This document shows, one piece after another, positions 1 to 39,712 of a stretch of 64,000 nt of DNA. Position 1 is the stretch's first letter; each line of letters begins with the position of its first letter. The DNA comes from Minisyncoccota bacterium. GTDB lineage: Bacteria > Patescibacteriota > Minisyncoccia > JAHIHE01 > JAGLIN01. The notes beneath the pieces are model-generated. The model was not told where the DNA came from. It saw only the letters and a program-made list of their open reading frames with translations, and ran no database searches. Both the position numbers and the translations under genes were made by a program. The stretch is taken from the NCBI GenBank assembly GCA_041661265.1, contig JBAZUT010000001.1, forward strand, positions 1,854 through 65,853, given 5' to 3'.

Positions 1-3000
1 GAAGGATTGGTCGATTCTTTATTAATGAAGCTTAGAGGAAGAGTGTCTGACGCTTCATAGGCAACCGAAAGAAGGACGCTTCCGCTCGAATCCGTTCCTG
101 AAAAAACGAGAGATGCGGTATTATCGGTTATCTCCACGACATCATCATTTAAACTATGCGAAGCGGGACTTGATCCTCTTGCAATGCCGGATATTGTATC
201 GGCAGTATTATTCTTGGACGTATAGGAAATGTGCTCATCCCCTATCTGGATCGTGCCCGAGCTTCCCATAAGATCGGTTGAGGTGAGAGAAATATCCGAA
301 GTACTGGAATTATCAAGAGCCTGATTCAATTTGATGCCATAGGCTATCGTCGGATCGGTCGTATCTGTCTGGTCTCCGGCAGTCTCAAATTGGAGATATG
401 GAGAAACATTCGGATAGGTTTTTGTGTTGGGAGTTGCAGCAGCATCCGCAGAGACGACCTGATAGTTATAGAACCTTCCGGAGGCCAGATTGGCATCAAT
501 AATGACATAATGTTCGGTAACTTTCTCGGTCTGCGTTGCTGTTGAAAATCCGGTTGCGGGATCCACAGTAAAATCATCCAGTGTGGATTCAACGTATTTC
601 ACTTGTGAAGTGGAAGCCTCGTCCGTCCTCCAATAGACAGTGGCATTGGTTCTCCCCGGAGTGACCGTAGGACCCAATGTTATGCTTGGCTCTTGGATAT
701 CCGGAACCTGAGCATTGGTTGTAAAAGTGTGATATGGATCGGTCGGAGGATTGAGGGGATGCTCCATGAGATTTCCCGCGCCATCCGCGGAAAGCACCTG
801 GTATTCATAAGCTGAATCCGATGTCAGGCTGGATAAAGCGACTGTGTGCAGATAGTCCGAACCGGGAGTAACCTCCGTTACAAAAGCAGCATCGTCTTTG
901 TTTACGGAGCCGGCAATGGAAAATTCAGCCGCACCGATTCTGTATTTAACCAGAGAATATGATCTTTCATTTGTGTTCCAAGTGATCGTGGCCGAGTTTG
1001 TCGATCCGGAGCTTACGCCATCCGGAGCGGGACCGGAGATCAGAACCGGCTTCGTGCTGTCCGGATCAGTGGAAGTGCCGAACTGCAAAAAGGGAGCGGC
1101 GGAAGGAGAGGTTGCAGTGTTCGGCGTTGCGGCATTATCGGAAAATATCACCTGATAATTATAGAACTTGCCGGAGGAAAGATTGGTGTTTATTATCACA
1201 TAATGCTCGGTAACTTTTTCAGTTTGCAGGGCCGTAGAGAATCCTCCTGCGGGATCAACCGTAAAATCATTTTCGGTCGATTCGATATAGTTTACCATGG
1301 AATCCGATACCTCATTCGTCTGCCAATAGATAGTGGCAGTATCTCTTCCCGGAACAACGGTGGGTCCCGAAGTCACAGAAGGAGAAGTGCTTGTGGTAGA
1401 AAAAGTATAATAGGGATCGGTCGGAGGATTATTGGGACTCTTCATAAGAAGGCCCGCCGCGTCCGCAGAAAGAACCTGATATTCATATTGCGTTCCCTCT
1501 GCAAGTCCCGTGATATCGACCGTATGGCTGAAATTGACCGAACTGATCTCCTGCACGAAATTGACATCATCCTTATCGACTGAGCCTGCAATAAAGAAAG
1601 GAGAAGTTCCTGCTTTTCTGTATTTCACGATGGAATATGATCTTTCATCCGTATACCAAGTTATTCTTGCAGAAGTATTGCTATTATTCGAATCAACAGG
1701 AAGAGGAGAAATGAGGCGCGGAGGAGTCGTGTCTCCGATTGGCGTCTCTCCGATGCTGGATCCGTCGGGTCGGGCGGAAACTACCGAGGAATATATGGAA
1801 ATGCCGTCGGCATCTTCGGCAGTTACTCTGTAGTAATAGTCAGTCGTGCTGTTTAAGGTTCCGGGAGTGGCGCTGTCCGCGCAATTTCCGTCTCCCTCGT
1901 CGTAGCAATAATTGGTTGAGCCGCTATTGATCGTGACAAAGGGAGACAACCCATAGTCGGCGCCATCGGTAGAGCGCCACACGTTATATTTGGTCGCACC
2001 CGACACTATCTCCCACCAGACAACAAGGCTGTAATCGGAATTAGGAACAACTGTTATGTCGGACTTGTTCATCCCTTTCGGATTGGCGGGTATGGTCACA
2101 AACTTTATCGTCGGATTTTCGTTATTGAAATTATCCTTGGCCTGAAAGCATACAGTAGCTATATTGGTTGCATCAAAAGAAAGAGTCCAGACTCTGGTGG
2201 CGGAAATAGCTTCCCAGCCGGTAGCGGAAGGATCGCTGGCAAGATCGGTGGCACAAGTTGAACCATCGATATTGGAAGCATTGGCGAAGCGGACATATTT
2301 CGTGGAGCTCTCAGTGAGAGAGATATCCGTAAGCTTATACCCCGAAGCATTGGCATTGATCTTGAAAGGAGGAGTCGCATAGACCGGTATCACGGTATCC
2401 ACGGCAAAATTGGAGCTATCCGCTGTTCCGACCTGCCCCCCTCCGTTTGCATCGTTCAAAGCTATGCGGACTTTGACATTACTCAGATATATTCTTGAGT
2501 TGAGATCAGACGCCGGATCAAGAGTAAGACCGGAAGTGACAATGGGGTTTTCCGTGTATGAAACTCCAGTGACATCCCCTTTTACGGTTGCGCTCAGAGC
2601 ATAGACCCATACTGTGGTCGGGACCGTCTCATGGGCTACGGCAAGGGTTGTATATCCCACTTCCGGCCACTTGCCCCTTCCCGTTGTCACAGTAAGAACG
2701 CCTCCACTATTAGAATCATAGTATATCACCTCGTCCTCGATCATAATGTATCCGGAAGTTTTTAGAACCGAATTGGGATCGCTCACGCTGACATTGCCTG
2801 AAGCCAGAACTCCGGCAGTCGTTGTAACTCCGGCATCATAGAAATATTGGATATTGACAGTACCTCCATCCTTGTCTCCGGGCGAGTCGGATAGTCCCGA
2901 TTCCTCAAAATCAGAGATCTGATAAGAACCGACTACGATCTTTCCAATGTTGCTCGGACTTGCATCGCTGTTCTGGCTCGCAGTGATCGTGTTTTTCACG

Positions 3001-6000
3001 CAATCTCCGGTCACATCATCAGTAACCCCGACACAAGGCGGAGTGTTTCTTACATAGAGGACGGAAGCATCGGAAAGCACCGGAGTTTGAGACCCGTCAG
3101 TCGATTCCAGCCAAGCCTTATATTGCATCCACTGATCATTCGCACCTGCGCTCTGGGTCGAATTTATGGTTTCTCCGGATGAAGTTGTTTCGTAATAGGT
3201 CTGCGTTCCTCCTCCGCCGTCGCAGTTCGTCGCGTCCCCCGGACCGCACCAGGATGCCGTTGTGAGCCCCGCCTTGGATGCTGCAGTCCTGATCCTGAAT
3301 TTGAGATTCGTTCCCGCCGGTTTCTCTCCGAGATTTCCCGACTGAGCATTCCAGGAAAAAGTATTGAGCATGGAAGCGGGGCTTCCTGTATCATAAGGAG
3401 AAGAAACCAGAGTCTGAGGAGACACACCGGTATCGGGATAGTGAGTATAGTAAACCTTGAGATCGGAGAAAGTGGGTGTCGATACGCCATCGGAAGAGGT
3501 CATGGTTACTTCATATTGAAAATAGCGATGGCCGGCAACCATGGAGCTCAGAGCGCTCAATGCTGAGCTGCTGGCGCCAGCGGTCATAGCAATGCTCTGA
3601 GCAATACCGCTAAAAGCGGTTTCGCCTGAACAGGCAGAATCGTCGCAAGAGCGGACTTTGACGGTCATTCCGGTATTCGAAGGAATAGCTGTAGCCGCCG
3701 ACCACTCGGCAAGACCCCAAGAAAGATCTTTCTGTCCGGTATCGATGATCTGGGAAGTGAAAGTGCCGGAAGAATAATATCCTATGGAAGTAGAATAATA
3801 ATTTGGTGTCGGTATGGTACCGCTAAAAGAACCGTATTTAGCATATGTTCTTCCTTCACCGCCATTCCCACCGGAATAACTACCTGTTCCTCCGCCTGCT
3901 CCGCCTACGCCGCCATTAGCGCCTATACTACCGCTATCAGTGATATTTTGAGCTGTAATAATCAAAGAACCGCCTGCGCCTGCTCCGCCACCACCACCTT
4001 TATCCAAAGAAGAAACAGCCGCATTACCTCCATTATTTCCATTGGAATTTATTGAACTACCGGCAGAAATTACTAAATTATTAGAATAAATTACAACTAC
4101 TCCTCCGCCTTTACCGCCTGCTCCACCAGATGAAGCGGCCCAAGCACAACCACCCGCTCCTGCACCACCAGCCCCGCCACCACCGCCAAAATATGCGCGC
4201 GTATTTAGTGTTGAGGAACCAGCGCCGCTAGCAGTTCTTCCATCATTTCCACCACCACCACCACCACCACCCACAATATTACCACCACTACTGCCACCTG
4301 TCCCGCCATTGGAATTTGAACCAACGGATCCAGTACTAAAACCAGCCCCACCACTACCTGGAGAACCGTTACCACCTCCTCCTCCACCGCCGCCTTTTGA
4401 AGAGTTACTTCCTGAAGTAGCCACACCGCCACCGCCACCGCCATTCCCTAAAGTTCCATCCCCGCCTACTCGCGTTCCACTCCAAACAGAACCACCGCCG
4501 CCGCCGCCACCATTGAGACTATTACCCGTGCTAGCACACAAGCCTCCGCTTCCTCCGGTGCCATTATAAGATTCGCCTCCAGCTGACCCGCTAGCAGCAC
4601 TAGCCGCGGCCGCTCCACTAAAACCTAAACCATTGGCATTAATCCCATTAGCTGCACCTACCGTGACCGTACCAGTTGCCCGAAAAGCCAACACTCCGCC
4701 TTTAGTGCCGTTCCAGGCTGTCGAAATAAGCGATGCTCCGGAACTAATCGTGACATCCGTATAATTCGGAACACGCTGAACCATTGTCTTCTGTGTCGTA
4801 CTATCGCCAAATGTATAGCTAAGAGCGGAGTCTAAGGTAAGCGTGTTGGTATTAATGGCAGTTATCGTCCTAAACTCGTAATTACCAGTGTTACTATAAT
4901 CGCTGGACGTCCCCTTGAGGTTTATGATCATTATTTCATCATTAACAGCCAGGCCTGTTGGCGTTGAAGACAGCGTAACGGTTGTTGCCCCCGAGTTGAT
5001 CGTCCCAGTTGTGGAAAAATTAACCGCACTCAGAACCGTGTTCAGCGATGAAACGACCAATGCGCCATCCGCGCCATCTCCTGATCCATAATCATAATTT
5101 AATTTTATATCATTTGCATTCACTGTCACATTATTCCAGGTGCTCTCATAATAAATCTTCACTTCGCTTAAAGTCGGGGTCGCGCTGAGATCGGTTTTAG
5201 AATTCAAAGTAGCTCTATATTGAATATATCGTTTATTGTTTAAATTATAAAGGGAACCTCCGTTTGTCACCGATGCAAATGATCCGTCTGAGCAATTGGA
5301 ATTGGCGCAAGATCGCACTTCCATTGTGACCGACGATCCGCCTCCGACAGTTGAGCTGTTGTCGGTCCATGCAATTTTTCCAAAATTCTGATTCACACCC
5401 ATATCAAATATGCGGGAAGTGAAAGTGCCGGATGAATTGTATAACAAAGATGCGGCATAATAATTCGGACTCGGCGCCGTACCGCTGATGGAAGCATATT
5501 TAGCATAGGTTCTTCCTCCTCCTCCCGCCCCTCCCGCATAGCCCGATGTGATGGTCCCGCCACTACCGCCATTGGACGTGATGCTTCCGCTATTACTCAG
5601 GTTTGGCGTAAGAATAATAATTGATCCGCCAGCTCCGCCACCGCCGCCGCCTGAATACTGTTGAGAATTAATTGTGCCATTTGTGCCATTTGTGCCATTT
5701 GCAGAAATAGAAAAACCTGTCGGAATCGTAATTTGCCGGGCAAAAATTGCTATAATTCCTCCTCCTTTTCCCCCTCCTCCACCGTTTATCCCGCCGCCTG
5801 CACAAGTTGTAGAATTTTGACGTGCGCCTCCTCCAGCCGCGCCGCCGCCGCCAAAAATCGCTTTCCTGTAAAGATTAGACGAACCGGTACCATCCGCGGT
5901 TAAACCATCATTGCCGCCGCCGCCGCCGCCGCCGCCTAATGCATAAGTTGCGCTATTTCCTCCACCGCCGCCATTAAGAACTCCTCCGTCAACACCATTA

Positions 6001-7238
6001 TTTCCGCCATATCCCAAAGATCCAGCTGAACCTCCTCCTCCTCCTCCTCCTCCGCCGCCCTTTGTGGTACTTGAAGAGCCTCTTAGTGCGCCGCCGCCGC
6101 CGCCGCCGCCAACACCGGCGAGTCCGCCTGCTCCTATATATAAAGTACCATAAACACCTCCCCCTCCTCCACCACCCTGTCCGGAATTTCCATCAGTAAG
6201 AGAAGTCCCCCCGCTTCCTCCCGTGCCGTTATACGACTCGCCGCCTCCCGCATTTACACCGCAATTTCCTCCGGCTCCTCCCGCAAAGCCTAAAGCATTG
6301 GCATTGATCCCATTGGCAGCATTTACTGTTACTGTTCCAGTCGATCTAAAAGCCAATACGCCCCCCTTGGTGCCATCCCAGGTCGAGGGGATGAGAGATG
6401 CGCCGGAATTGATCGTAACATCAGTATAATTCGGCACCCGCTGAACCATTATTTTTTGCGTGGTACTGTCGCCATAGGTATAGCTAAGCGCGGAATTTAA
6501 AGTGAGAGTGTTGGTATTTATCGCAGTTATCGTTTTAAATTCATAATTACCCGCATTGCCAGAATCCGCAGAAGTACCCTTAAGATTGATTATTATGATC
6601 TCATCATTAACAGCCAGGCCTGTTGGCGTTGCAGATAAAGTGACAGCAGTCGCTCCGGCGCTGATCGTACCAGTGGTGGAAAAATTAACTGCACTCAGAA
6701 CCGTGTTCAACGATGAAACGACCAATGCGCCATCCGCGCCAGTGCCGCCGCCATAATCATAGTCAAGCTTTACGCCGCTCAAAATTTGCACCTTGCCAGA
6801 CTCCGGAGTTCCTAAATTAAAATTCTCATCAGTCGAATCGGTGGAAAGAGCGGACTTTCCGTTAAATTGCGTATCCGCGGTTTCTTCCACGTTTTCGCTT
6901 ACGACAGAAAGCTTCAATACTTTATCTTCATTAGGCTGGCCCGAGTTGAGGACGATCGAATCGATGGAGTCCTTGCTCTCATAGGTAGCCCATCCTGTTT
7001 TGTTGGAAGCATGAGTCGGATAGCAGACCGAGCCGTCCCACGTTCCATTGACCGCAGTGCATTCTCCGGCATTGGCGGGAGGAGCTATGTCCCAGCCCGC
7101 CTGTATCCATGAATTCGTGGCCGCCCTTCCGCTTGGCTTGCCGGGCATAAAAAAATACAGCACGGAACTCGTGACTATCGTGCTTACCAGGATCATAATA
7201 AAAGCGGTCTTGCTTAGAAATCTGACTTTTCTTTCCAT
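1..7238 (-). CDS. giant secreted/cell-surface protein, 3'-truncated by window edge (>2400 aa): N-terminal signal anchor, two ~560-aa tandem units (beta-rich domain + ~300-aa Gly-rich tract + Cys-containing domain), then repeated FN3-like modules
   Basis: Start ATG at 7236-7238 (rc), protein begins MERKVRFLSKTAFIMILVSTIV. This minus frame stays open to position 1, and no listed minus-strand ORF lies in it. Repeated motifs ITWxTxE...YEYQV and PLNPPTDPYHTF occur twice. Plus-strand poly-Pro ORFs are antisense artifacts of GGN codons. Confidence 0.8.
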   Translation of the reverse strand, partial: MERKVRFLSKTAFIMILVSTIVTSSVLYFFMPGKPSGRAATNSWIQAGWDIAPPANAGECTAVNGTWDGSVCYPTHASNKTGWATYESKDSIDSIVLNSGQPNEDKVLKLSVVSENVEETADTQFNGKSALSTDSTDENFNLGTPESGKVQILSGVKLDYDYGGGTGADGALVVSSLNTVLSAVNFSTTGTISAGATAVTLSATPTGLAVNDEIIIINLKGTSADSGNAGNYEFKTITAINTNTLTLNSALSYTYGDSTTQKIMVQRVPNYTDVTINSGASLIPSTWDGTKGGVLAFRSTGTVTVNAANGINANALGFAGGAGGNCGVNAGGGESYNGTGGSGGTSLTDGNSGQGGGGGGGVYGTLYIGAGGLAGVGGGGGGGALRGSSSTTKGGGGGGGGGGSAGSLGYGGNNGVDGGVLNGGGGGNSATYALGGGGGGGGNDGLTADGTGSSNLYRKAIFGGGGAAGGGARQNSTTCAGGGINGGGGGKGGGIIAIFARQITIPTGFSISANGTNGTNGTINSQQYSGGGGGGAGGSIIILTPNLSNSGSITSNGGSGGTITSGYAGGAGGGGRTYAKYASISGTAPSPNYYAASLLYNSSGTFTSRIFDMGVNQNFGKIAWTDNSSTVGGGSSVTMEVRSCANSNCSDGSFASVTNGGSLYNLNNKRYIQYRATLNSKTDLSATPTLSEVKIYYESTWNNVTVNANDIKLNYDYGSGDGADGALVVSSLNTVLSAVNFSTTGTINSGATTVTLSSTPTGLAVNDEIMIINLKGTSSDYSNTGNYEFRTITAINTNTLTLDSALSYTFGDSTTQKTMVQRVPNYTDVTISSGASLISTAWNGTKGGVLAFRATGTVTVGAANGINANGLGFSGAAAASAASGSAGGESYNGTGGSGGLCASTGNSLNGGGGGGGSVWSGTRVGGDGTLGNGGGGGGVATSGSNSSKGGGGGGGGNGSPGSGGAGFSTGSVGSNSNGGTGGSSGGNIVGGGGGGGGNDGRTASGAGSSTLNTRAYFGGGGGAGGAGAGGCAWAASSGGAGGKGGGVVVIYSNNLVISAGSSINSNGNNGGNAAVSSLDKGGGGGAGAGGSLIITAQNITDSGSIGANGGVGGAGGGTGSYSGGNGGEGRTYAKYGSFSGTIPTPNYYSTSIGYYSSGTFTSQIIDTGQKDLSWGLAEWSAATAIPSNTGMTVKVRSCDDSACSGETAFSGIAQSIAMTAGASSSALSALSSMVAGHRYFQYEVTMTSSDGVSTPTFSDLKVYYTHYPDTGVSPQTLVSSPYDTGSPASMLNTFSWNAQSGNLGEKPAGTNLKFRIRTAASKAGLTTASWCGPGDATNCDGGGGTQTYYETTSSGETINSTQSAGANDQWMQYKAWLESTDGSQTPVLSDASVLYVRNTPPCVGVTDDVTGDCVKNTITASQNSDASPSNIGKIVVGSYQISDFEESGLSDSPGDKDGGTVNIQYFYDAGVTTTAGVLASGNVSVSDPNSVLKTSGYIMIEDEVIYYDSNSGGVLTVTTGRGKWPEVGYTTLAVAHETVPTTVWVYALSATVKGDVTGVSYTENPIVTSGLTLDPASDLNSRIYLSNVKVRIALNDANGGGQVGTADSSNFAVDTVIPVYATPPFKINANASGYKLTDISLTESSTKYVRFANASNIDGSTCATDLASDPSATGWEAISATRVWTLSFDATNIATVCFQAKDNFNNENPTIKFVTIPANPKGMNKSDITVVPNSDYSLVVWWEIVSGATKYNVWRSTDGADYGLSPFVTINSGSTNYCYDEGDGNCADSATPGTLNSTTDYYYRVTAEDADGISIYSSVVSARPDGSSIGETPIGDTTPPRLISPLPVDSNNSNTSARITWYTDERSYSIVKYRKAGTSPFFIAGSVDKDDVNFVQEISSVNFSHTVDITGLAEGTQYEYQVLSADAAGLLMKSPNNPPTDPYYTFSTTSTSPSVTSGPTVVPGRDTATIYWQTNEVSDSMVNYIESTENDFTVDPAGGFSTALQTEKVTEHYVIINTNLSSGKFYNYQVIFSDNAATPNTATSPSAAPFLQFGTSTDPDSTKPVLISGPAPDGVSSGSTNSATITWNTNERSYSLVKYRIGAAEFSIAGSVNKDDAAFVTEVTPGSDYLHTVALSSLTSDSAYEYQVLSADGAGNLMEHPLNPPTDPYHTFTTNAQVPDIQEPSITLGPTVTPGRTNATVYWRTDEASTSQVKYVESTLDDFTVDPATGFSTATQTEKVTEHYVIIDANLASGRFYNYQVVSADAAATPNTKTYPNVSPYLQFETAGDQTDTTDPTIAYGIKLNQALDNSSTSDISLTSTDLMGSSGTIQIGDEHISYTSKNNTADTISGIARGSSPASHSLNDDVVEITDNTASLVFSGTDSSGSVLLSVAYEASDTLPLSFINKESTNP
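3430..6790 (-). repeat. intragenic tandem duplication (~1680-bp period, two units) inside the giant surface-protein gene, with stretches of near-identical nucleotide sequence
   Basis: For example 4720-5080 vs 6400-6760 share long identical runs (cagccaggcctgttggcgttg; gtggaaaaattaac.gcactcagaaccgtgttca.cgatgaaacgaccaatgcgccatccgcgcca). The two protein units align over ~560 aa. Confidence 0.7.
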
Positions 7239-7695
7239 CTTTTTATATTGACAGAAAGAATTATTACAGAATATCACCGATTCTTTTCCAAGCTTGGAAA
7301 AGATGAGAAAATTTTCTGCGCTATCGCCAAAAAGAAGGCAGATAAATCTTACAACCAACCTTGCAGCCTCCAGAGAGTATAGCTTCAGAGAGTCAAAAAA
7401 CATCAGAACTTTGTTCCCTTCTGTTTTCGACTGCTCTATTTCCTTCCTGATCCTGTCTGTGAGCAATATTATCTTTTCATACAAAGCAAGAAGCCTCATT
7501 TTTTTGTTTTGTTATATGCACCTCAGGAATAACAATTAGCTCTATTTATTAACTACAATATATCAGCAAGAAGATGCCTTCTGTTTTTTTTATTTGGGTA
7601 ACTCATAATAGAATTATACAATAAATTGCAAAATATAACAAATAGGCGTGCTAGTCCACCTCATATTGCATCAAGTAACCAGGTGCAAAGACATA

Positions 7696-28999: not shown

Positions 29000-31156
29000 T
29001 TATTCAAACAAAACCTTACGAAGTCTTATCAATTCTTCTTTTGTCAAGTCACCCAGATTCTTGACTTCCAATTTGACTCCTTCAGCAAATTCTTTTTGCC
29101 TTAACTCCGACGTTGTTTTCTCTATAGTATTTTTGAATTCCGCCGGAGACTCATATGCTTTTTTGGCTAATTCTCTTGCCTCTTTTTTCCCTACATATCT
29201 ATATCCTATCTTTAGAGTACCTTGTACTACTGGTGCCGAAAATGCAATAAACTCAAGATACTCCAAATCAATATAATATACCGTTTGGTTCAATACATTA
29301 TCTGGAATATTTCCTTTTATTAAAACGGAACTTAAGTTTACTGAATTCTCATCTTTAACACTATACTCATAACTAAGGCTATAGTTATATTGAGGATAGG
29401 ATAGCCTGCTAAGAAGATACATAGGTTTACCGTCATATAAAATTGTTTTATTGAAAGTATAAACTTCGGTCTCAATACCTTTATTTAGTATGTATTTATC
29501 CTTAATACTCTCGTACTGGACTATAGCTGCTTCCCAGCTATCCGAAGTTACATTCCTTTTCAATTTTATATCCTTGTTTTCAAGGATGTAATTCAAGCAA
29601 GACGAAACCTTCCAAGTCTCTGGCTGTGAATCAACGCCCGAAAGAGTACAGGCATTTCCTTTTATTACCAATGTCATTTCCTCATTCAAACTGTACATTC
29701 TCGAATTAGGTACTGACAATATAGGTTTTGATTCTTCAATTTTCTCCAGCTTTACATCGTCGATATAATATATATCTCCTGCCGCTGCTTGGGACGCAAG
29801 CCAGAACATTAAGCGTCCGTCATTTACCGCACCGGTAAAACCGGTTGTGGTAAATTCAGTCGTAAATGTCTGCCAGCCAGTGCCAAGATTAACATAATAA
29901 TCCGGCATATAAGGAGTATATGGCGATGCGTGCTTGATCAGCCTAACCTTTATATTTCGACCTACATTCGAGTAAGCCGCAAAGGTCAACCGATATCGCG
30001 TATTCGATTCCAATACTACTCCAGCTTGATACAACTGGATATTTGAACTGTTGCCGGTAATTGCAAGCTTTGCAACATTTCCCGTAACGTTGGAAGGCTC
30101 AATACTGAAAGTTCCTGCTTTTTTTGCATAAAATATCCAGGGCAATGTTCCTGATTCAAACCCGCTGTCGCCAATAATATTTACTGGGGTTGGTTCCGGG
30201 GTTAGTTCTGGCGTGGGTTCCGGAGTCGGTTCCGGAGTCGGTTCCGGCGTGGGTTCTGGAGTTGGTTTTTCGAGCTCAAAAGTTATCCTCCTATCCGCAT
30301 CGGAATAAAAGGAATAGGAATCACTTGGCGTGATATTCTGTAGTTTATTTGCCCATGCCCATTCCGGATTATCCATAGCAGGATCGTAGAATATCCATGC
30401 GCTATTGGACCAATTATAATGCCAGACTATTACTCCTGTAAGATTTTTAAAAATCTTTGTGCTGGTTACACCTGATTCTTTCGGTGCTTGCCAAACATTT
30501 CCATCTGGCACTCCGGTAGCAAGGTTCAATGTTACAGACCATGGCTGGACCGGAGTAATTACCGGTTCAGGAGTTACTTCGGGGGTTGGTGCCGGAGTTG
30601 AAACTGCCGTAGGAGCTACGGTTGGCTCCGGAGTTGCTACGGGCTTTTCTTCTAAAGTGACGAATACATCAGAACTACTGAAATCAACTCTTTTTGTTTG
30701 AGTTCTATATTCCGAACTTTCAAAAACAAGTAATTTACCAGTATCTCCTTGGCAAACCTCAACCTTAAACGGAGTAGTGCCTATCCAGCCTACATTAAAC
30801 TCAGTTATATCAATTCCTGACGGACTGGATGAAATTACCAGATATTTGCACTGCGAATACGCAATCGGTGTATCTGAAATAATTATATCCGCAAAGGAGT
30901 TTGTAACTCTTTTGACTGTTATATAAATATGCCCGTGAGCCGTATTTATTGCCCCTTCCTGGTAAAATACATCTTCTCCTGAAATGGTTAATGTAACCAA
31001 ACACCTTTCTCCGCATCCGAAATCTTTTACCACAACATCATATCCCGGATACTGATCTCCTTTGTGCATTTCCACTGCACCAACTGTCGATGGTGCCATC
31101 AGAAGCACCATTGCGGCAAATATTATTGCCCTTACTATGTCTCCATTTCTATTCAT
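29000..31156 (-). CDS. large secreted protein with (PTPE)n linkers (hypothetical surface protein)
   Basis: N-terminal signal peptide. PTPEPTPEPTPEPTPEPTPELTPEPTP linker encoded by 12-nt tandem repeats at ~30180-30265. Confidence 0.7.
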   Translation of the reverse strand: MNRNGDIVRAIIFAAMVLLMAPSTVGAVEMHKGDQYPGYDVVVKDFGCGERCLVTLTISGEDVFYQEGAINTAHGHIYITVKRVTNSFADIIISDTPIAYSQCKYLVISSSPSGIDITEFNVGWIGTTPFKVEVCQGDTGKLLVFESSEYRTQTKRVDFSSSDVFVTLEEKPVATPEPTVAPTAVSTPAPTPEVTPEPVITPVQPWSVTLNLATGVPDGNVWQAPKESGVTSTKIFKNLTGVIVWHYNWSNSAWIFYDPAMDNPEWAWANKLQNITPSDSYSFYSDADRRITFELEKPTPEPTPEPTPEPTPEPTPELTPEPTPVNIIGDSGFESGTLPWIFYAKKAGTFSIEPSNVTGNVAKLAITGNSSNIQLYQAGVVLESNTRYRLTFAAYSNVGRNIKVRLIKHASPYTPYMPDYYVNLGTGWQTFTTEFTTTGFTGAVNDGRLMFWLASQAAAGDIYYIDDVKLEKIEESKPILSVPNSRMYSLNEEMTLVIKGNACTLSGVDSQPETWKVSSCLNYILENKDIKLKRNVTSDSWEAAIVQYESIKDKYILNKGIETEVYTFNKTILYDGKPMYLLSRLSYPQYNYSLSYEYSVKDENSVNLSSVLIKGNIPDNVLNQTVYYIDLEYLEFIAFSAPVVQGTLKIGYRYVGKKEARELAKKAYESPAEFKNTIEKTTSELRQKEFAEGVKLEVKNLGDLTKEELIRLRKVLFE

Positions 31157-34099: not shown

Positions 34100-34495
34100 C
34101 TATATCCTTTGAATAATTCGATCTATAATTTTCTGGCCGTTTTTTAATTGATGCTCCCAAATTCGAAAAATTTTCCAGCCAATTTTTTTATAATATTTCG
34201 TTACTTCCCTATCTCTTTCAACATTCCGTGCTAACTTTAATTGCCAAAATCTTTTTCTGGTATTTGGCATACTCCCATGCCTTTTGCATCCATGCCAGAA
34301 ACAAGAATCTACAAAAATGACAGCCTTGTATTTTGATAAAACCAAGTCGGGCTTCCCGAAATATTTTGATGAATTTTTACAGTAACGAAATCCCACTTTC
34401 CAGAGTTTTTTTCTAAATTCAATCTCCAGCTTGCTGTCCTTGCTTCGGACTTTAGACATTATCTCGCTTCGCTTCTTTTTTGAGTAAATATCCAT
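34100..34495 (-). CDS. vsr: very-short-patch repair endonuclease Vsr
   Basis: FRKKLWKVGFRY, GKPDLVL, FVDSCFWHGC, ...IFRIWEHQ family signature. Confidence 0.85.
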   Translation of the reverse strand: MDIYSKKKRSEIMSKVRSKDSKLEIEFRKKLWKVGFRYCKNSSKYFGKPDLVLSKYKAVIFVDSCFWHGCKRHGSMPNTRKRFWQLKLARNVERDREVTKYYKKIGWKIFRIWEHQLKNGQKIIDRIIQRI

Positions 34496-34500
34496 ATACT

Positions 34501-36207
34501 TTAGATTGTTTCCGCATTATCCAATCGATTGAATAAATGTGATAAAAGACTTAATGCGTCTAGACAATCTTGTTCCGTATATAAGCCAGACTGTCTCAAA
34601 TCTTCAGCAGTTTCGTGCGCCTTTGGATTTCTAAAAGCCATCCACATCGCACGAGCCAATAGACCATGTCCTTTGGAAATGTTTTCCAATGTAAGTGGCT
34701 TAAAATCTGTACCATCGGGCCGTTTATACTTTTTTGTTACAGATAATATTGGTAGAACAGGAGGCAGAGGCGGGTTTTGTGGTTTCGGCTGATCCGGTGA
34801 AAAAGCTTCTTTAATCAATCTAAGATCAACATTACTGGATGCGGTTTTAGCTTTAATCTGATTAACATATTCAGTCACACCCTCCAGTACGGCACCATAA
34901 TAATCGCTATTTTTATAATAATTAAAGACAATTTTTTTTAAAACTGGATGCAAATTGCGCCAGTGAAAGTACGGATATGGTTTAATTATATTTTGAAGAC
35001 CCTTTAAACTGCTTACAAGCTTTTCTTCTGTCATCTCAGAATCTTTCAATAAAGCACCGATGATAGGATCAAGATCTTCTCTAATATTTTCAGGTATATG
35101 ATTTCGCCACTCACCAATACTCATGCCAGTTTTATTTTCTGCCTCTTTTGATCTTATTTCTGCTCTTCTTTTACGCCAATCTTGTTCCAGCCAATTAATA
35201 ACTTTTCTTAAATAATCTCTTAATTTTAACATTTCCGGATGACCCCAATTTAAAGATTTTCGATCTGTAGCTATAACGTCTTCATCAAGATCATCAATAA
35301 AATCTACTTCCAGCCAACCAGTCAAATACGAAAAGAAATGACTTGACATGCTTTCAGAAAAATACTCCGGTAAATTTACCAATTTTTTCCTAGAAAATAA
35401 AGTAACTCCACGCATATTAGTTTTTGGTGAAATCGGCGTTTCTGTCGCAATAAGATATCCAGTAACTTTATTTTTTTCTGAATAATCTGATTCGAGTTTA
35501 ATTTCTTTTGGAACGTCCCACTCAACTTCTTTTTTTAAATCCGCATACTTCTTCTCGTTTTCAACAAAAAAAGGGTTTTCTTCATTATACTGGATAGAAA
35601 CTTTAAAAGTATTATCTACAATAAAGATTTTTGACAATGCAACAGCAAGAGCTGACGAATCAAATTCGGTTTGACGATGAAGTCCACGAAGGATAATTGT
35701 TGTACCATTTTTAGCATCGCAAGGTTCATCAATCTTTATAAGTTGCGGATGATATTCAGCGGTTTTAGATTCTTTTATGTCTTGCCATCGAAGAATAAAA
35801 ACGTTCATTTTTAAATTCTTCTTCGTAATCACTTCAATCTCCTCAGCAATCCCAAAAAATGATAACTTCCCTATGCCCTTTTTCCCTATTACTTTTCTCC
35901 CTCCTGTAATACTTTCTACTTCTTCCTCATCTCGTCTATTACGACCGATACGAAGAAATTTACTATTGATTTCTTCGAGATTCATTCCAATACCATTATC
36001 TTTGACAGCAATTTCCCGTTTTCCGTATTTATCATATAGAAAAACAGTCACGTCTGAGGCATTAGCATCATAAGAATTTGCTACCAACTCAGCGAGAACC
36101 GGTGGTAACGTTGAGTACATTCGAACGCCAAGATGTTCAATCGTCGCCGGATCAAATGTCATTTTTAAAATATCCTTTTCTTGATCATTTTGATTCATAA
36201 TTTTCAA
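34501..36207 (-). CDS. GHKL/MORC-like ATPase (HATPase_c_3-type) with C-terminal HEPN-like Rx4H motif; uncharacterised defense-associated protein
   Basis: Bergerat-fold motifs ELVANSYDA (N-box), DNGIGM (G1), GKKGIGKLS (G2). C-terminal FRNPKAHE (Rx4H) at 34612-34635. Overlaps the dcm stop by 23 nt, 5 nt upstream of vsr. Confidence 0.75.
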   Translation of the reverse strand: MKIMNQNDQEKDILKMTFDPATIEHLGVRMYSTLPPVLAELVANSYDANASDVTVFLYDKYGKREIAVKDNGIGMNLEEINSKFLRIGRNRRDEEEVESITGGRKVIGKKGIGKLSFFGIAEEIEVITKKNLKMNVFILRWQDIKESKTAEYHPQLIKIDEPCDAKNGTTIILRGLHRQTEFDSSALAVALSKIFIVDNTFKVSIQYNEENPFFVENEKKYADLKKEVEWDVPKEIKLESDYSEKNKVTGYLIATETPISPKTNMRGVTLFSRKKLVNLPEYFSESMSSHFFSYLTGWLEVDFIDDLDEDVIATDRKSLNWGHPEMLKLRDYLRKVINWLEQDWRKRRAEIRSKEAENKTGMSIGEWRNHIPENIREDLDPIIGALLKDSEMTEEKLVSSLKGLQNIIKPYPYFHWRNLHPVLKKIVFNYYKNSDYYGAVLEGVTEYVNQIKAKTASSNVDLRLIKEAFSPDQPKPQNPPLPPVLPILSVTKKYKRPDGTDFKPLTLENISKGHGLLARAMWMAFRNPKAHETAEDLRQSGLYTEQDCLDALSLLSHLFNRLDNAETI

Positions 36208-37243
36208 TTATAATTTTACCAAGCTGTCTCGCAAATTCGGGAGGAACAGCGTTCCCTATCATTCGCGCAATATCTGACATATTCTTCGCATAAAATACAT
36301 AGTCTTTGGGAAATGTTTGCAGCGTCGCACCTTCTCGAATAGAAATAGCCCTATTTTCTTCAGGATGAGCAAACCTACCATTAGAAATGCTTAAAAATTT
36401 AGTCGTAATAGTCGGGGCAGGCTTATCCCAGCTCATACGACCATAATTATCAATAAAACCATTACCTTTGTATTTTTTCCTTTTTAAATTCTTATCATGG
36501 GCCCAATCAAGCCAAGAACCTCCATTTTTTGCAGTCTTCTTAAGACGAAGTAAATTCTTTGATGTAAGGCCGGCAACCGAATGATTAAATTCCGTATCAT
36601 CCCTAAATCCAGCCTTCACTTTTTGAAATCCATTTTTCTCCCCTAAAACATCAGCAACGGTACGTTTTTTATTTATTGAATATTCTGGAAATATTTCTTT
36701 GTCAATCACTCTGCTGGCAACCAAGGAAAATCTTTTGCGAGCCTGAGGAATGCCATAATCACTCATATTCACAATCTCAAAATGAACCTTGTATCCCCTG
36801 TCTTTTAAATTGGAAACAAAATTATTCAAGCCGCTCTGATCTTTTTTCCGTAATATTCCCGGGACATTTTCAACCAATACATAACCAGGGTTAAAGTAGT
36901 CAACGAATCTCTTAAATTCAATAAGAAGATTTTTTGATTTTTGCGATTTTGTTTTATCATGCTGAATAATAGACCAATACTGACATGGGCTGCAACCAAT
37001 AAACACAATCTCATCATCGTTTTTTTTCAATCCAAGTCTTTTCGCAAGATCAATTTCTTTTAAAGCAAATACATCAGCCGTTATGAATTGCGAGTTGGGA
37101 TTATTCTTTTCATATGTCTCTTTGCATGAAGAATCATTATCTATGCCAGCAATCACGTCAATCCCTGCCTGAATTAGACCATTCGTCATTCCACCTCCCG
37201 AGCAAAAAAAGTCAACTGCTCTTATTTTTGTTTTTTTTTGCAT
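36185..37243 (-). CDS. dcm: DNA (cytosine-5)-methyltransferase
   Basis: Motif I DFFCSGGG, IV GCSPCQ, VI ENVPG, VIII QARKR, X GNAVPP. Confidence 0.9.
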   Translation of the reverse strand: MQKKTKIRAVDFFCSGGGMTNGLIQAGIDVIAGIDNDSSCKETYEKNNPNSQFITADVFALKEIDLAKRLGLKKNDDEIVFIGCSPCQYWSIIQHDKTKSQKSKNLLIEFKRFVDYFNPGYVLVENVPGILRKKDQSGLNNFVSNLKDRGYKVHFEIVNMSDYGIPQARKRFSLVASRVIDKEIFPEYSINKKRTVADVLGEKNGFQKVKAGFRDDTEFNHSVAGLTSKNLLRLKKTAKNGGSWLDWAHDKNLKRKKYKGNGFIDNYGRMSWDKPAPTITTKFLSISNGRFAHPEENRAISIREGATLQTFPKDYVFYAKNMSDIARMIGNAVPPEFARQLGKIIIENYESK

Positions 37244-37246
37244 ATA

Positions 37247-38083
37247 TTAAAAGTTTATAAACCATTCTTTATTCACCTCTACAACTTCTTCCGTCTTGAG
37301 ATTAATTCCAATTTTGAGTTCTTTCATTTTTTCCACCAGTTCATCTCCTTCGATCAAATCAATAGGAGGCGCGCCATCTCTCGTCGCTTCTTGTTTGGCA
37401 TCCCGAGTAAATGTGCCAGTTGTAATAACCAGACCCTTGTCAGCTCGACCTACCATCGCACCTCTAAAATCTCGTATTTGTTGTGACGAGACACTTCCCG
37501 CATAACGTTTACATTGAAATATAATTCTAAAACTCAATAGGCCTCCAATTTTAATAATACCCCTCCCATCTATACCGCCATCACCCGAACGACCAGTAAC
37601 TTCTACTTGGACAAAACCTGATTCACGCAAAATTCTCTGACATAACCTCTCGAAAGCTTCCGGGCTCAGTTGCAAACATTGTTCAAGTAATTCTTCCTCC
37701 CAAAGTTTCGGCGCACCTTCCGGCTCAGTACCTTCTGCAACCTCCGCCTCAATTGAATCAGTTTCACGATCGATGGTTTTAACAAAATGATTCACAATAT
37801 TTTTGTCAACGCTATTCACCTCTCTTCCCTTGGTTGTAAGGGCCCATACTCCTCTTGATGAATTCTCCAATACACCAAAACGCTTCAAATAATTACGCGA
37901 CCAAGCAAGGCGATAACCAAGCTTGGTTCTGTTTCCCCGATGAATTTCATTAATTTCATCTTCGCTAAGTTTCAATAAATTAGCAACTTTTTCCTCAATT
38001 TCAGCAATAGAACCGGAGCCGCCAAGTTCATGCAAGGCTTTGATTACTGGATTAAATAAATTATCATAAGTTGGGATAGCCAT
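37247..38083 (-). CDS. mrr: Mrr-family restriction endonuclease (Mrr_N winged helix + Mrr_cat PD-(D/E)xK)
   Basis: N-terminal IPTYDNLFNPVIKALHELGG. Catalytic region GDGGIDGRGI...FQCKRYAGSVSSQQIRDFRGA...GLVITTGTFT. Confidence 0.8.
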   Translation of the reverse strand: MAIPTYDNLFNPVIKALHELGGSGSIAEIEEKVANLLKLSEDEINEIHRGNRTKLGYRLAWSRNYLKRFGVLENSSRGVWALTTKGREVNSVDKNIVNHFVKTIDRETDSIEAEVAEGTEPEGAPKLWEEELLEQCLQLSPEAFERLCQRILRESGFVQVEVTGRSGDGGIDGRGIIKIGGLLSFRIIFQCKRYAGSVSSQQIRDFRGAMVGRADKGLVITTGTFTRDAKQEATRDGAPPIDLIEGDELVEKMKELKIGINLKTEEVVEVNKEWFINF

Positions 38084-38283
38084 AATGAATTAGTTTAATT
38101 GTTTTCGCGAATTCTACCACTTAAAAGTTACCAATAAAGGGTTTTTATCTCACCCAAATTATACTTCATTTATATTGATATTACAAGAAAATCCAGCCTT
38201 TCGGCTGGATTTACTTAAATCCCCTTTTTCAAGGGTAAGAACCAAAATATGCGCATTCCCTGCCCTATAATTATTCAAAACTA

Positions 38284-38715
38284 TCAAGCCTTCTCCGGCT
38301 TGCTCTTTATTCTATTCCTGCATTTCTTGCTTCCGCATTTGCATTTCATTTTCAAACCGACTATAGATTCTTCGGAAAAATTGATCGTGATCTCTTCGCC
38401 TTTTTTGATATCCCTGGAAGCGATATCACGGGCATTTTTCGCGAATGTGTTTGCATCGCAGGAATGATTTAGATATTTCCCAGGAGACGTCGGAATGATA
38501 TATTTTCCTTTGTAGTAATAGACATTTTTTCTGATCGGATCCGGAAGATCCGGAATGTCTTCTTTTTTCACTTGACTCTTCAAGTCCCACTCGATGACAA
38601 CTTCCCCTTTTTTGAAATCGCGCGCCGCAAACACGCCCTTGCCAAGTATCTTTGATCTCTTCACTATCCAATCTTTGTGCCTGGAAGGATCTTTTCCTAC
38701 TGATGTTTTTTTCAT
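38284..38715 (-). CDS. SET-domain protein (putative lysine methyltransferase) with post-SET Cys cluster
   Basis: GKGVFAARDFKKGEVVIEW, NHSCDAN, post-SET CKCGSKKCR. Confidence 0.8.
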   Translation of the reverse strand: MKKTSVGKDPSRHKDWIVKRSKILGKGVFAARDFKKGEVVIEWDLKSQVKKEDIPDLPDPIRKNVYYYKGKYIIPTSPGKYLNHSCDANTFAKNARDIASRDIKKGEEITINFSEESIVGLKMKCKCGSKKCRNRIKSKPEKA

Positions 38716-38908: not shown

Positions 38909-39712
38909 TCATTTCTTTGGCTTGTTCAGCTCCCCCACCTTCCCGATCACAAATCTTATAAACTCCACCACCTCTTTCTGCCGTTTCATCTCCTGACCAT
39001 AGCGCCAAGCCTCGGCTTCTTCGATCAGGTTTTTCCATTCGCCAAATTCATTCTTAATCCAAGCGGCGGATTTCGGCTTGGAAGCAAGTTTCCCAGTCAA
39101 GATCGTATAGAGGATCCGGCACAGGTGCAACACGAGATAGGACTGCTGGTGCGGATCGTTCAGATATGCCGTGTCCTTTATTTTCGGCTCCCATTCCTCG
39201 AACAAGTCTCGTATGCGAGCTTCGATTAAATCTTTGCTTTCAATCCGTTTCTTGATGAGCGTTTTGAACTCCGGACCGATAAGCGCAATTCCATCGTGAA
39301 CAAGAACATACTGATCAATGATCCATTCGTTTCCATATTTCGCCATGGGACAAAATTTTCCCGCTCCGAAATAGGGCCGTCCTTCTTTGGGCGGAAGAAT
39401 GTTTTCAAGCATGAAAAGTGAAATATATGAGCACTCGATCCTTTTGGCCCATCTTGGGAATTTTTTCTCCGCGTCAATGTGCAATTGTTTCACTTTTTGG
39501 ATCTTTTCGCCAGGCGCCGGATTTTTCAGAACGACCGCAAGATCGATGTCGCTCCGCTCTTTGTTGAAATCGCCATAGGATAGAGATCCGGTGAGATAGA
39601 TCCCGACCAGATCATCGGCAAAAATATTCTGAATCCCCTCTGTCAAAAAGCAGAGTACATTGTTGATGACCTTGTGCGGCGTCGCTTTTTTGATGTGTTC
39701 AAGATTTTCCAT
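38909..39712 (-). CDS. aminoglycoside nucleotidyltransferase-like protein (ANT(3'')/AadA fold: NTase domain + DUF4111-like C-terminus)
   Basis: GIYLTGSLSYGDFNKERSDIDLAVVL NTase motif (GS...D.D), length 267 aa as AadA. Confidence 0.7.
   Translation of the reverse strand: MENLEHIKKATPHKVINNVLCFLTEGIQNIFADDLVGIYLTGSLSYGDFNKERSDIDLAVVLKNPAPGEKIQKVKQLHIDAEKKFPRWAKRIECSYISLFMLENILPPKEGRPYFGAGKFCPMAKYGNEWIIDQYVLVHDGIALIGPEFKTLIKKRIESKDLIEARIRDLFEEWEPKIKDTAYLNDPHQQSYLVLHLCRILYTILTGKLASKPKSAAWIKNEFGEWKNLIEEAEAWRYGQEMKRQKEVVEFIRFVIGKVGELNKPKK

Follow-up and report, generated by a model that had tools for sequence, protein, structure and literature searches.

Nucleases that cut modified DNA have been found beside genes for cytosine methyltransferases before. 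Zheng et al. (2010; PMC2938202) described MspJI next to a cytosine methyltransferase and vsr, raised the puzzle of a "self-destructive" arrangement, and reported a methyltransferase gene next to about half of the MspJI homologs, with specificity for 5-methylcytosine (m5C) in nearly every case. Two ways out of the puzzle are on record: LpnPI and the active M.LpnPI (GGNCC) do not overlap in specificity, and MspJI is paired with an inactive M.MspJI (PMC2938202). Loenen and Raleigh (PMC3874153) have reviewed how the type IV enzymes and the methyltransferases of a cell can coexist. Here we analyze a 64,000-nucleotide stretch of contig JBAZUT010000001.1 (assembly GCA_041661265.1, a Minisyncoccota bacterium), referred to below as the 64-kb window, in which an Mrr-type nuclease gene is followed by genes for an m5C methyltransferase, a GHKL ATPase fused to a HEPN domain (GHKL-HEPN), and a Vsr repair endonuclease. 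With a probability that we put at about 0.6, the nuclease is a type IV enzyme that shares a transcript with an m5C module and leaves the mark of that module uncut, so that the two are compatible. A preliminary description of this locus had presented the pairing of nuclease and methyltransferase as a paradox. The tight spacing and the domain assignments behind that view hold, but the pairing is less unexpected than it seemed, given the precedents of MspJI and E. coli mrr. The paradox is only apparent because the regular, conserved partner of the methyltransferase is the GHKL-HEPN gene.

The locus shares parts with several described systems. Like MspJI-family loci, it has a Mrr_cat nuclease of the D...QxK type adjoining an m5C methyltransferase and a Vsr gene; however, MspJI-family enzymes exceed 400 aa and carry an SRA-like, 5mC-flipping N-terminus, whereas the window nuclease has 278 aa and an Mrr_N winged helix. 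The window methyltransferase also has a restriction (R)-like GHKL-HEPN partner, which does not appear in the description of the MspJI locus. EcoKMrr of E. coli K-12 shows the identical two-domain architecture, and in the K-12 immigration control region (mrr-hsdRMS-mcrBC) a type IV enzyme likewise adjoins a compatible restriction-modification (R-M) system that contains a methyltransferase. There, mrr is divergent from hsdR at a distance of 187 bp and lies beside a type I system making N6-methyladenine (m6A), whereas the window mrr gene is co-oriented with an m5C methyltransferase gene and 3 nt away from it. Genes 2-4 of the cluster correspond in order and domain make-up to the NmeAI/NgoAXIV module, but Neisseria and nearly all other homologs lack an upstream Mrr. 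Finally, BbrUII and HgiDII (GTCGAC) resemble the window ATPase in their first ~400 residues, a GHKL+S5 (paraMORC) region, and in pairing with an m5C methyltransferase, but their C-terminal domain is of another kind than the HEPN domain of the window protein.

The domain structure given for the nuclease in the preliminary description is borne out. Pfam places Mrr_N (PF14338) at residues 6-89 (2.8e-20; 72.7 bits, cutoff 29.5) and Mrr_cat (PF04471) at residues 138-252 (1.1e-32), and the strings IPTYDNLFNPVIKALHELGG, GDGGIDG, FQCKRY and ITTGTFT are all found in the protein. It is built from an N-terminal winged helix, a disordered linker (approximately residues 108-125) and a C-terminal PD-(D/E)xK variant with catalytic residues E145, D172 (GGID) and Q190-x-K192. 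The earlier concern that the enzyme might be inactive for want of catalytic residues does not hold: E145, D172, Q190 and K192 are intact, and they are invariant across 26 homologs, down to 31% identity. PADLOC classifies the protein as mREase_IV ("type IV methyl-directed restriction enzyme"; 8.7e-32), the NCBIfam scan returned no model matching it, and it aligns with EcoKMrr of E. coli K-12 over the full length from residue 1 (26% identity, E 1e-25), with GDGGIDG and QxK kept. By sequence, it matches nothing in the PDB other than the MspJI catalytic domain (query residues 145-253 against MspJI residues 305-418), and an AlphaFold2 model (predicted local distance difference test score, pLDDT, 82) has MspJI and AspBHI as its top PDB folds. 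Both are modification-dependent enzymes. Membership in the MspJI family (type IIM) was considered and rejected on the Mrr_N N-terminus, the length of 278 aa and the restriction of the MspJI match to the catalytic domain. The protein is thus best regarded as a putative type IV enzyme of EcoKMrr architecture, with predicted modification dependence; as LlaGI illustrates, the Mrr_cat fold alone does not dictate modification dependence (PMC3874153).

The gene located 3 nt downstream, identified earlier as an m5C methyltransferase, matches both PF00145 (3.5e-58, 198 bits) and TIGR00675 (141.4 bits, cutoff 100.65), and its motifs I (FCSGGG), IV (SPCQ), VI (ENV), VIII (QARKR), IX (REGATLQTFP) and X (GNAVPP) are intact. 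Its usual company was read from a survey of 80 loci from bacteria and archaea, each from a different species and each with a relative of the ATPase-HEPN protein (36-63% identity). An m5C methyltransferase occurs somewhere in 73 of the 80 loci and Vsr in 38-46 of them, and no other gene family is found in more than 8. Of 76 loci that could be assessed, 64 have the methyltransferase gene immediately ahead of GHKL-HEPN in the same orientation, and of 59 that could be assessed for Mrr, 1 (L016) has an Mrr relative immediately ahead of the methyltransferase; the methyltransferase therefore belongs with the ATPase-HEPN gene. The overlap between the methyltransferase and ATPase genes is also kept, measuring 8-22 nt in L156, L157 and L160. 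The module occurs in both bacteria and archaea; one ATPase-methyltransferase pair, 62% identical (L006), is binned as Methanoregula.

A complete counterpart of genes 2-4 is present in Neisseria gonorrhoeae (L167, NZ_CP119140.1), where methyltransferase, GHKL-HEPN and Vsr follow one another in the same order with 59.5%, 37% and 44% identity, without Mrr. For the methyltransferase, identity is 56% over residues 182-350, a segment that includes the target recognition domain (TRD). The gonococcal gene is presumably that of NgoAXIV, with CCGG as its site, and the product of M.NmeAI is C5mCGG. By this kinship, CCGG or a related site is the predicted target of the window methyltransferase. Among solved structures, DNMT1 and M.HaeIII match the catalytic half only, leaving the TRD uninformative. 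The L167 record, a 2.17-Mb Neisseria gonorrhoeae chromosome, is entered in the plasmid collection as a plasmid. Its methyltransferase aligns as two segments that lie in different reading frames and meet near residue 182, a sign that the gene may be frameshifted in that strain.

The ATPase-HEPN protein matches HATPase_c_3 (9.3e-23) and, at its C-terminus, the Hypoth_Ymh HEPN family (9.2e-13), with the GHKL ATPase spanning approximately residues 1-400 and the HEPN domain residues 417-562. Its GHKL motifs are invariant, as is R523-x4-H528 of the HEPN domain among homologs, and in an AlphaFold2 model (pLDDT 79) the first ~400 residues resemble Hsp90/MORC ATPase modules. The BbrUII/HgiDII model (NF050001) was tried and rejected for this protein, which scores 229.5 bits against a cutoff of 550, aligns with model positions 2-400 of 659 only and has another C-terminus. 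The architecture is that of REBASE "R.NmeAIP", listed by Orlowski and Bujnicki as a GHKL protein that ends in Hypoth_Ymh (PMC2441816). Anantharaman et al. report fusions between paraMORC ATPases and HEPN domains of the Ymh family in the vicinity of R-M genes (PMC3710099), and Iyer et al. tie paraMORCs to cytosine methylases and Vsr (PMC2292703). The GHKL-HEPN protein is accordingly a putative R-like partner of the m5C methyltransferase. The fourth gene encodes Vsr (PF03852, 6.3e-28; TIGR00632, 123.9 bits, cutoff 97.85), the usual repair companion for m5C deamination, which leaves T:G mismatches. Genes 2-4 thus appear to form a known type of module, of the putative NmeAI/NgoAXIV kind. REBASE lists this type as a putative type II system and R.NmeAIP as putative, and in the literature consulted we found no biochemical proof of restriction or of HEPN RNase activity. 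The naming of the GHKL/HEPN and Vsr genes in the preliminary description agrees with the matches to HATPase_c_3, Hypoth_Ymh and TIGR00632; its suggestion that the two genes buffer self-damage by the nuclease does not fit their distribution, as across genomes both track the methyltransferase and not Mrr.

The nuclease behaves differently. Homologs number roughly 8000 for Mrr and 1800 for GHKL-HEPN. For the nuclease, we surveyed 72 metagenomic loci with relatives together with nine context look-ups (relatives 71-82% identical). Many relatives stand alone among housekeeping genes (L164, L165, L087), another lies beside a DUF4145 gene (L086), and in a neighbour-joining (NJ) tree linked and unlinked copies are intermixed at 76-83% identity to the window protein. 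Because its close relatives are solitary or found with unrelated partners and intermix with linked copies in the tree, the Mrr protein probably works on its own. These observations, together with the near absence of Mrr from homologous modules, also disfavour the earlier proposal that the nuclease is a conventional restriction partner protected by the methyltransferase. Other settings of the clade include a 1305-aa PIN-TPR protein adjoining the Mrr relative in L159 and DUF559 and AIPR genes in L163 (Mrr identity 78-82%); large serine recombinases lie a few genes away in both, which suggests that these Mrr relatives are carried on mobile elements. A second recurrent order of Mrr, methyltransferase and large protein, with a non-m5C methyltransferase, is seen in L166 (5001-8543), L088 (2307-5846) and L118, where the gene for an N6_N4 methyltransferase comes no more than 16 nt after that of the Mrr relative (75-77% identity), and a DndB-like protein of 581 aa is encoded next. 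A search of the plasmid collection with Mrr returned distant matches only (at most 52% identity), with uninformative context.

Autonomy does not make the linkage random. In 40 loci, 92 proteins were counted at the flanks of Mrr; the C5 methyltransferase is their commonest family (8), followed by Vsr (3) and HATPase_c_3 (3). The order Mrr-methyltransferase-GHKL with a first junction of 2-4 nt is seen in the window, L016, L156, L157 and L160-162/L084, in differing genomic contexts and with Mrr identities of 71-83%. The partners differ among these loci: L160 has an 81% identical Mrr, but its methyltransferase (41%) and ATPase (29%; 633 aa, without HEPN) make a different pair. Gene order varies elsewhere as well, being methyltransferase-GHKL-Mrr in L107 and Mrr-GHKL with a reversed methyltransferase in L111. 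Between L156 and L157 the ATPases are 80% identical and the Mrr genes 69%, and the gene trees are incongruent; Mrr and the methyltransferase-ATPase modules would appear to have been shuffled, not co-inherited. Linkage to an m5C/GHKL module is found in approximately 20-25% of the closest Mrr lineages in an unbiased sample and in approximately 40% (6 of 15 lineages) when all are counted, the look-ups P0006 and P0058 having been chosen in a manner that favours linkage. A further arrangement occurs in L109 (6001-10135), where the genes after a Mrr relative (60% identity) encode, in order, Vsr, an m5C methyltransferase and a protein of 532 aa that carries a FokI cleavage domain.

Read as a compatible pairing, the cluster would join two restriction systems of opposite logic in one low-GC unit. 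In the first, host DNA would carry the mark of the methyltransferase, for which CCGG or a related site is the probable target, the ATPase-HEPN protein would act as the R-like partner on unmarked DNA, and Vsr would mend the T:G mismatches that arise from m5C deamination. The second would consist of the autonomous Mrr, which would cut foreign modification patterns, the mark of the resident methyltransferase excluded; its targets would be DNA marked by other methyltransferases, as in modified phages or incoming rival R-M systems. The two would be compatible and complementary, one covering unmodified invaders and the other differently methylated ones. Of the three options offered in the preliminary description, that the specificity of the methyltransferase is invisible to the nuclease is the best supported, and we infer it here together with co-transcription of the two genes.

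Several observations weigh against this reading. Compatibility of Mrr with the methyltransferase is deduced from their coexistence. EcoKMrr is said to act on some CG-methylated DNA, and an EcoKMrr-like specificity would clash with C5mCGG. CCGG shows no depletion in the window (654 observed against 655 expected), although 64 kb is too short, and palindrome avoidance too indirect a signal, for target assignment. The flat CCGG count would also suit a locus in which there is no conflict at all, either because the methyltransferase is inactive, as M.MspJI was when expressed (PMC2938202), or because Mrr is latent or inactive; the apparent frameshift of the gonococcal homolog in the strain examined points the same way. 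We consider such silence very unlikely: all ten-motif hallmarks of the methyltransferase and the catalytic residues of Mrr are intact and conserved across lineages 40-83% identical, and a retained Vsr is sensible only if m5C is made. Two difficulties remain. No DNase domain is recognisable in the GHKL-HEPN protein, and the Mrr-methyltransferase junction of 2-4 nt is shared by at least four lineages that differ in their flanks and have methyltransferase-ATPase pairs of two kinds, a tightness that hints at more than coexistence and exceeds that of a loose defence island.

Both difficulties would be met if Mrr were the DNA-cleaving arm of the paraMORC module, with the GHKL ATPase sensing or looping DNA at an unmethylated target and licensing Mrr, the methyltransferase protecting self, and HEPN serving as an RNase backup. 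The BbrUII/HgiDII restriction endonucleases resemble the GHKL-HEPN protein over the N-terminal ~400 residues only, paraMORCs have been proposed to act with fused or stand-alone nucleases (Iyer et al., PMC2292703), and the LlaGI precedent (PMC3874153) leaves the Mrr_cat fold indecisive as to modification dependence. The Mrr clade, moreover, is seen with four paraMORC types (565 aa with HEPN, 633 aa, 557 aa and 549 aa), and the close junction recurs in the window, L016, L156, L157 and L160-162. We nevertheless regard this integrated scheme as unlikely: 58 of 59 assessable homologous modules and the Neisseria module lack Mrr, so the module works Mrr-free; Mrr copies 76-83% identical are solitary or found with unrelated genes, and intermix with linked copies in the tree; and the nuclease keeps the full EcoKMrr architecture, including Mrr_N. 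A narrower version, to which we assign a rather small chance, is that Mrr was recruited as a trans-acting DNase by paraMORC m5C systems devoid of a DNA nuclease, within one subclade known mostly from metagenome bins of the candidate phyla radiation (Patescibacteria). The result would be a three-part machine of reader/nuclease, methyltransferase and ATPase-HEPN, with Mrr near-constant and methyltransferase-ATPase cassettes of different specificity swapped behind it. If Mrr did serve as the DNase arm of a paraMORC system, a Mrr_N/Mrr_cat enzyme could work in a modification-blocked system, and the classification of Mrr-type genes would change. At the opposite extreme, the genes might be neighbours by accident in a defence island, with the pairing unselected and possibly no co-transcription. 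Defence genes do tend to cluster, the neighbours of many Mrr relatives are unrelated genes, and the modules are shuffled (80% identity for GHKL against 69% for Mrr between L156 and L157). Yet no other family is found beside the Mrr clade as often as the m5C methyltransferase (8 of 92 neighbour proteins), the shared orientation and the junction of 2-4 nt return in different genomic contexts, and within the cluster a hairpin and the best promoter-like match lie upstream of Mrr only; an accident of position is, in our judgement, highly improbable.

Every component of the locus, and the apparent paradox itself, is known already. The new element is modest: the association is extended to canonical proteins of EcoKMrr architecture, and to paraMORC-type m5C modules in organisms labelled mostly Patescibacteria in the records. 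On the reading of a compatible type IV enzyme, annotation of the cluster would be corrected: the methyltransferase and GHKL-HEPN genes would be grouped as a module of NmeAI type, and Mrr would be listed separately as a type IV enzyme. The cluster would add a case from uncultivated bacteria to the Mrr-fold, modification-dependent nucleases that repeatedly occur next to vsr and genes for m5C methyltransferases. It also offers a compact natural test case for how a type IV enzyme avoids the resident mark and for the role of the paraMORC-HEPN "R" protein.

Features of the cluster and of the spacer upstream of it (64-kb window numbering; all four genes are on the minus strand)
Feature	Position	Strand	Size or make-up	Basis
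Mrr-type nuclease	37247-38083	(-)	278 aa	Pfam, PADLOC, EcoKMrr alignment, AlphaFold2
C5-cytosine DNA methyltransferase	36185-37243	(-)	352 aa	PF00145, TIGR00675, readable motifs
paraMORC-type GHKL ATPase + Ymh-family HEPN	34501-36198	(-)	565 aa	Pfam, NCBIfam, AlphaFold2
Vsr very-short-patch repair endonuclease	34100-34495	(-)	131 aa	PF03852, TIGR00632
Terminator-like hairpin	38189..38212	(-)	10-bp stem AAAUCCAGCC/GGCUGGAUUU, GAAA loop, U-rich tail; follows SET-domain gene	
Sigma-70-like promoter match	38158..38186	(-)	TTGTAA-17-TATAAT (10/12), ~75 nt upstream of Mrr start	

The four genes are closely packed, and their family matches are strong, well above what chance would give. The Mrr stop codon TAA (37247-37249) is followed by 3 nt (TAT) and then by the methyltransferase ATG; the 3-nt spacing agrees with the preliminary description. 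The end of the methyltransferase gene overlaps the GHKL-HEPN gene by 14 nt, a tighter junction than that between Mrr and the methyltransferase, and 5 nt separate the GHKL-HEPN stop from the Vsr start. The spacer 5' of Mrr measures 200 nt and holds the hairpin and then the promoter-like match, the best in the region. RNA folding of 38150-38290(-) gives -38.2 kcal/mol (z = -3.2), and the hairpin is a predicted terminator; promoter-like matches in the region occur at the shuffle expectation, and TTGTAA-17-TATAAT is a consensus match only. The cluster from Mrr to Vsr is probably a single transcript. Its composition sets it apart, with GC of 0.34-0.41 across all four genes against 0.43 in the flanks, and third-position GC (GC3) of 0.25-0.37 against 0.47-0.56 in the two genes upstream; it looks as if it had been horizontally acquired as one unit. 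The exact locus is also carried by the samples SRR6484324, SRR18595301 and ERZ27249449.

Other palindromes deviate from expectation in the window. GATC is strongly over-represented (1030 observed against 697 expected, both strands), and GGCC (280 against 417), CGCG (314 against 431) and CTAG (60 against 116) are depleted, a pattern that could stem from further R-M systems in the host. GTCGAC, like CCGG, is neutral. The nearest gene on the upstream side of the cluster encodes a 143-aa SET-domain protein (38284-38715, minus strand), of a kind uncommon in bacteria, preceded by an AadA_C/NTP_transf_2 nucleotidyltransferase gene (38909-39712, minus strand). A 718-aa protein encoded at 29000-31156 (minus strand) contains a long (PTPE)n/PT-rich repeat and has no Pfam family on record. 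At the left end, a stop-free frame of at least 2503 codons (window positions 1-7511, minus strand) belongs to a giant protein gene that runs off the window.

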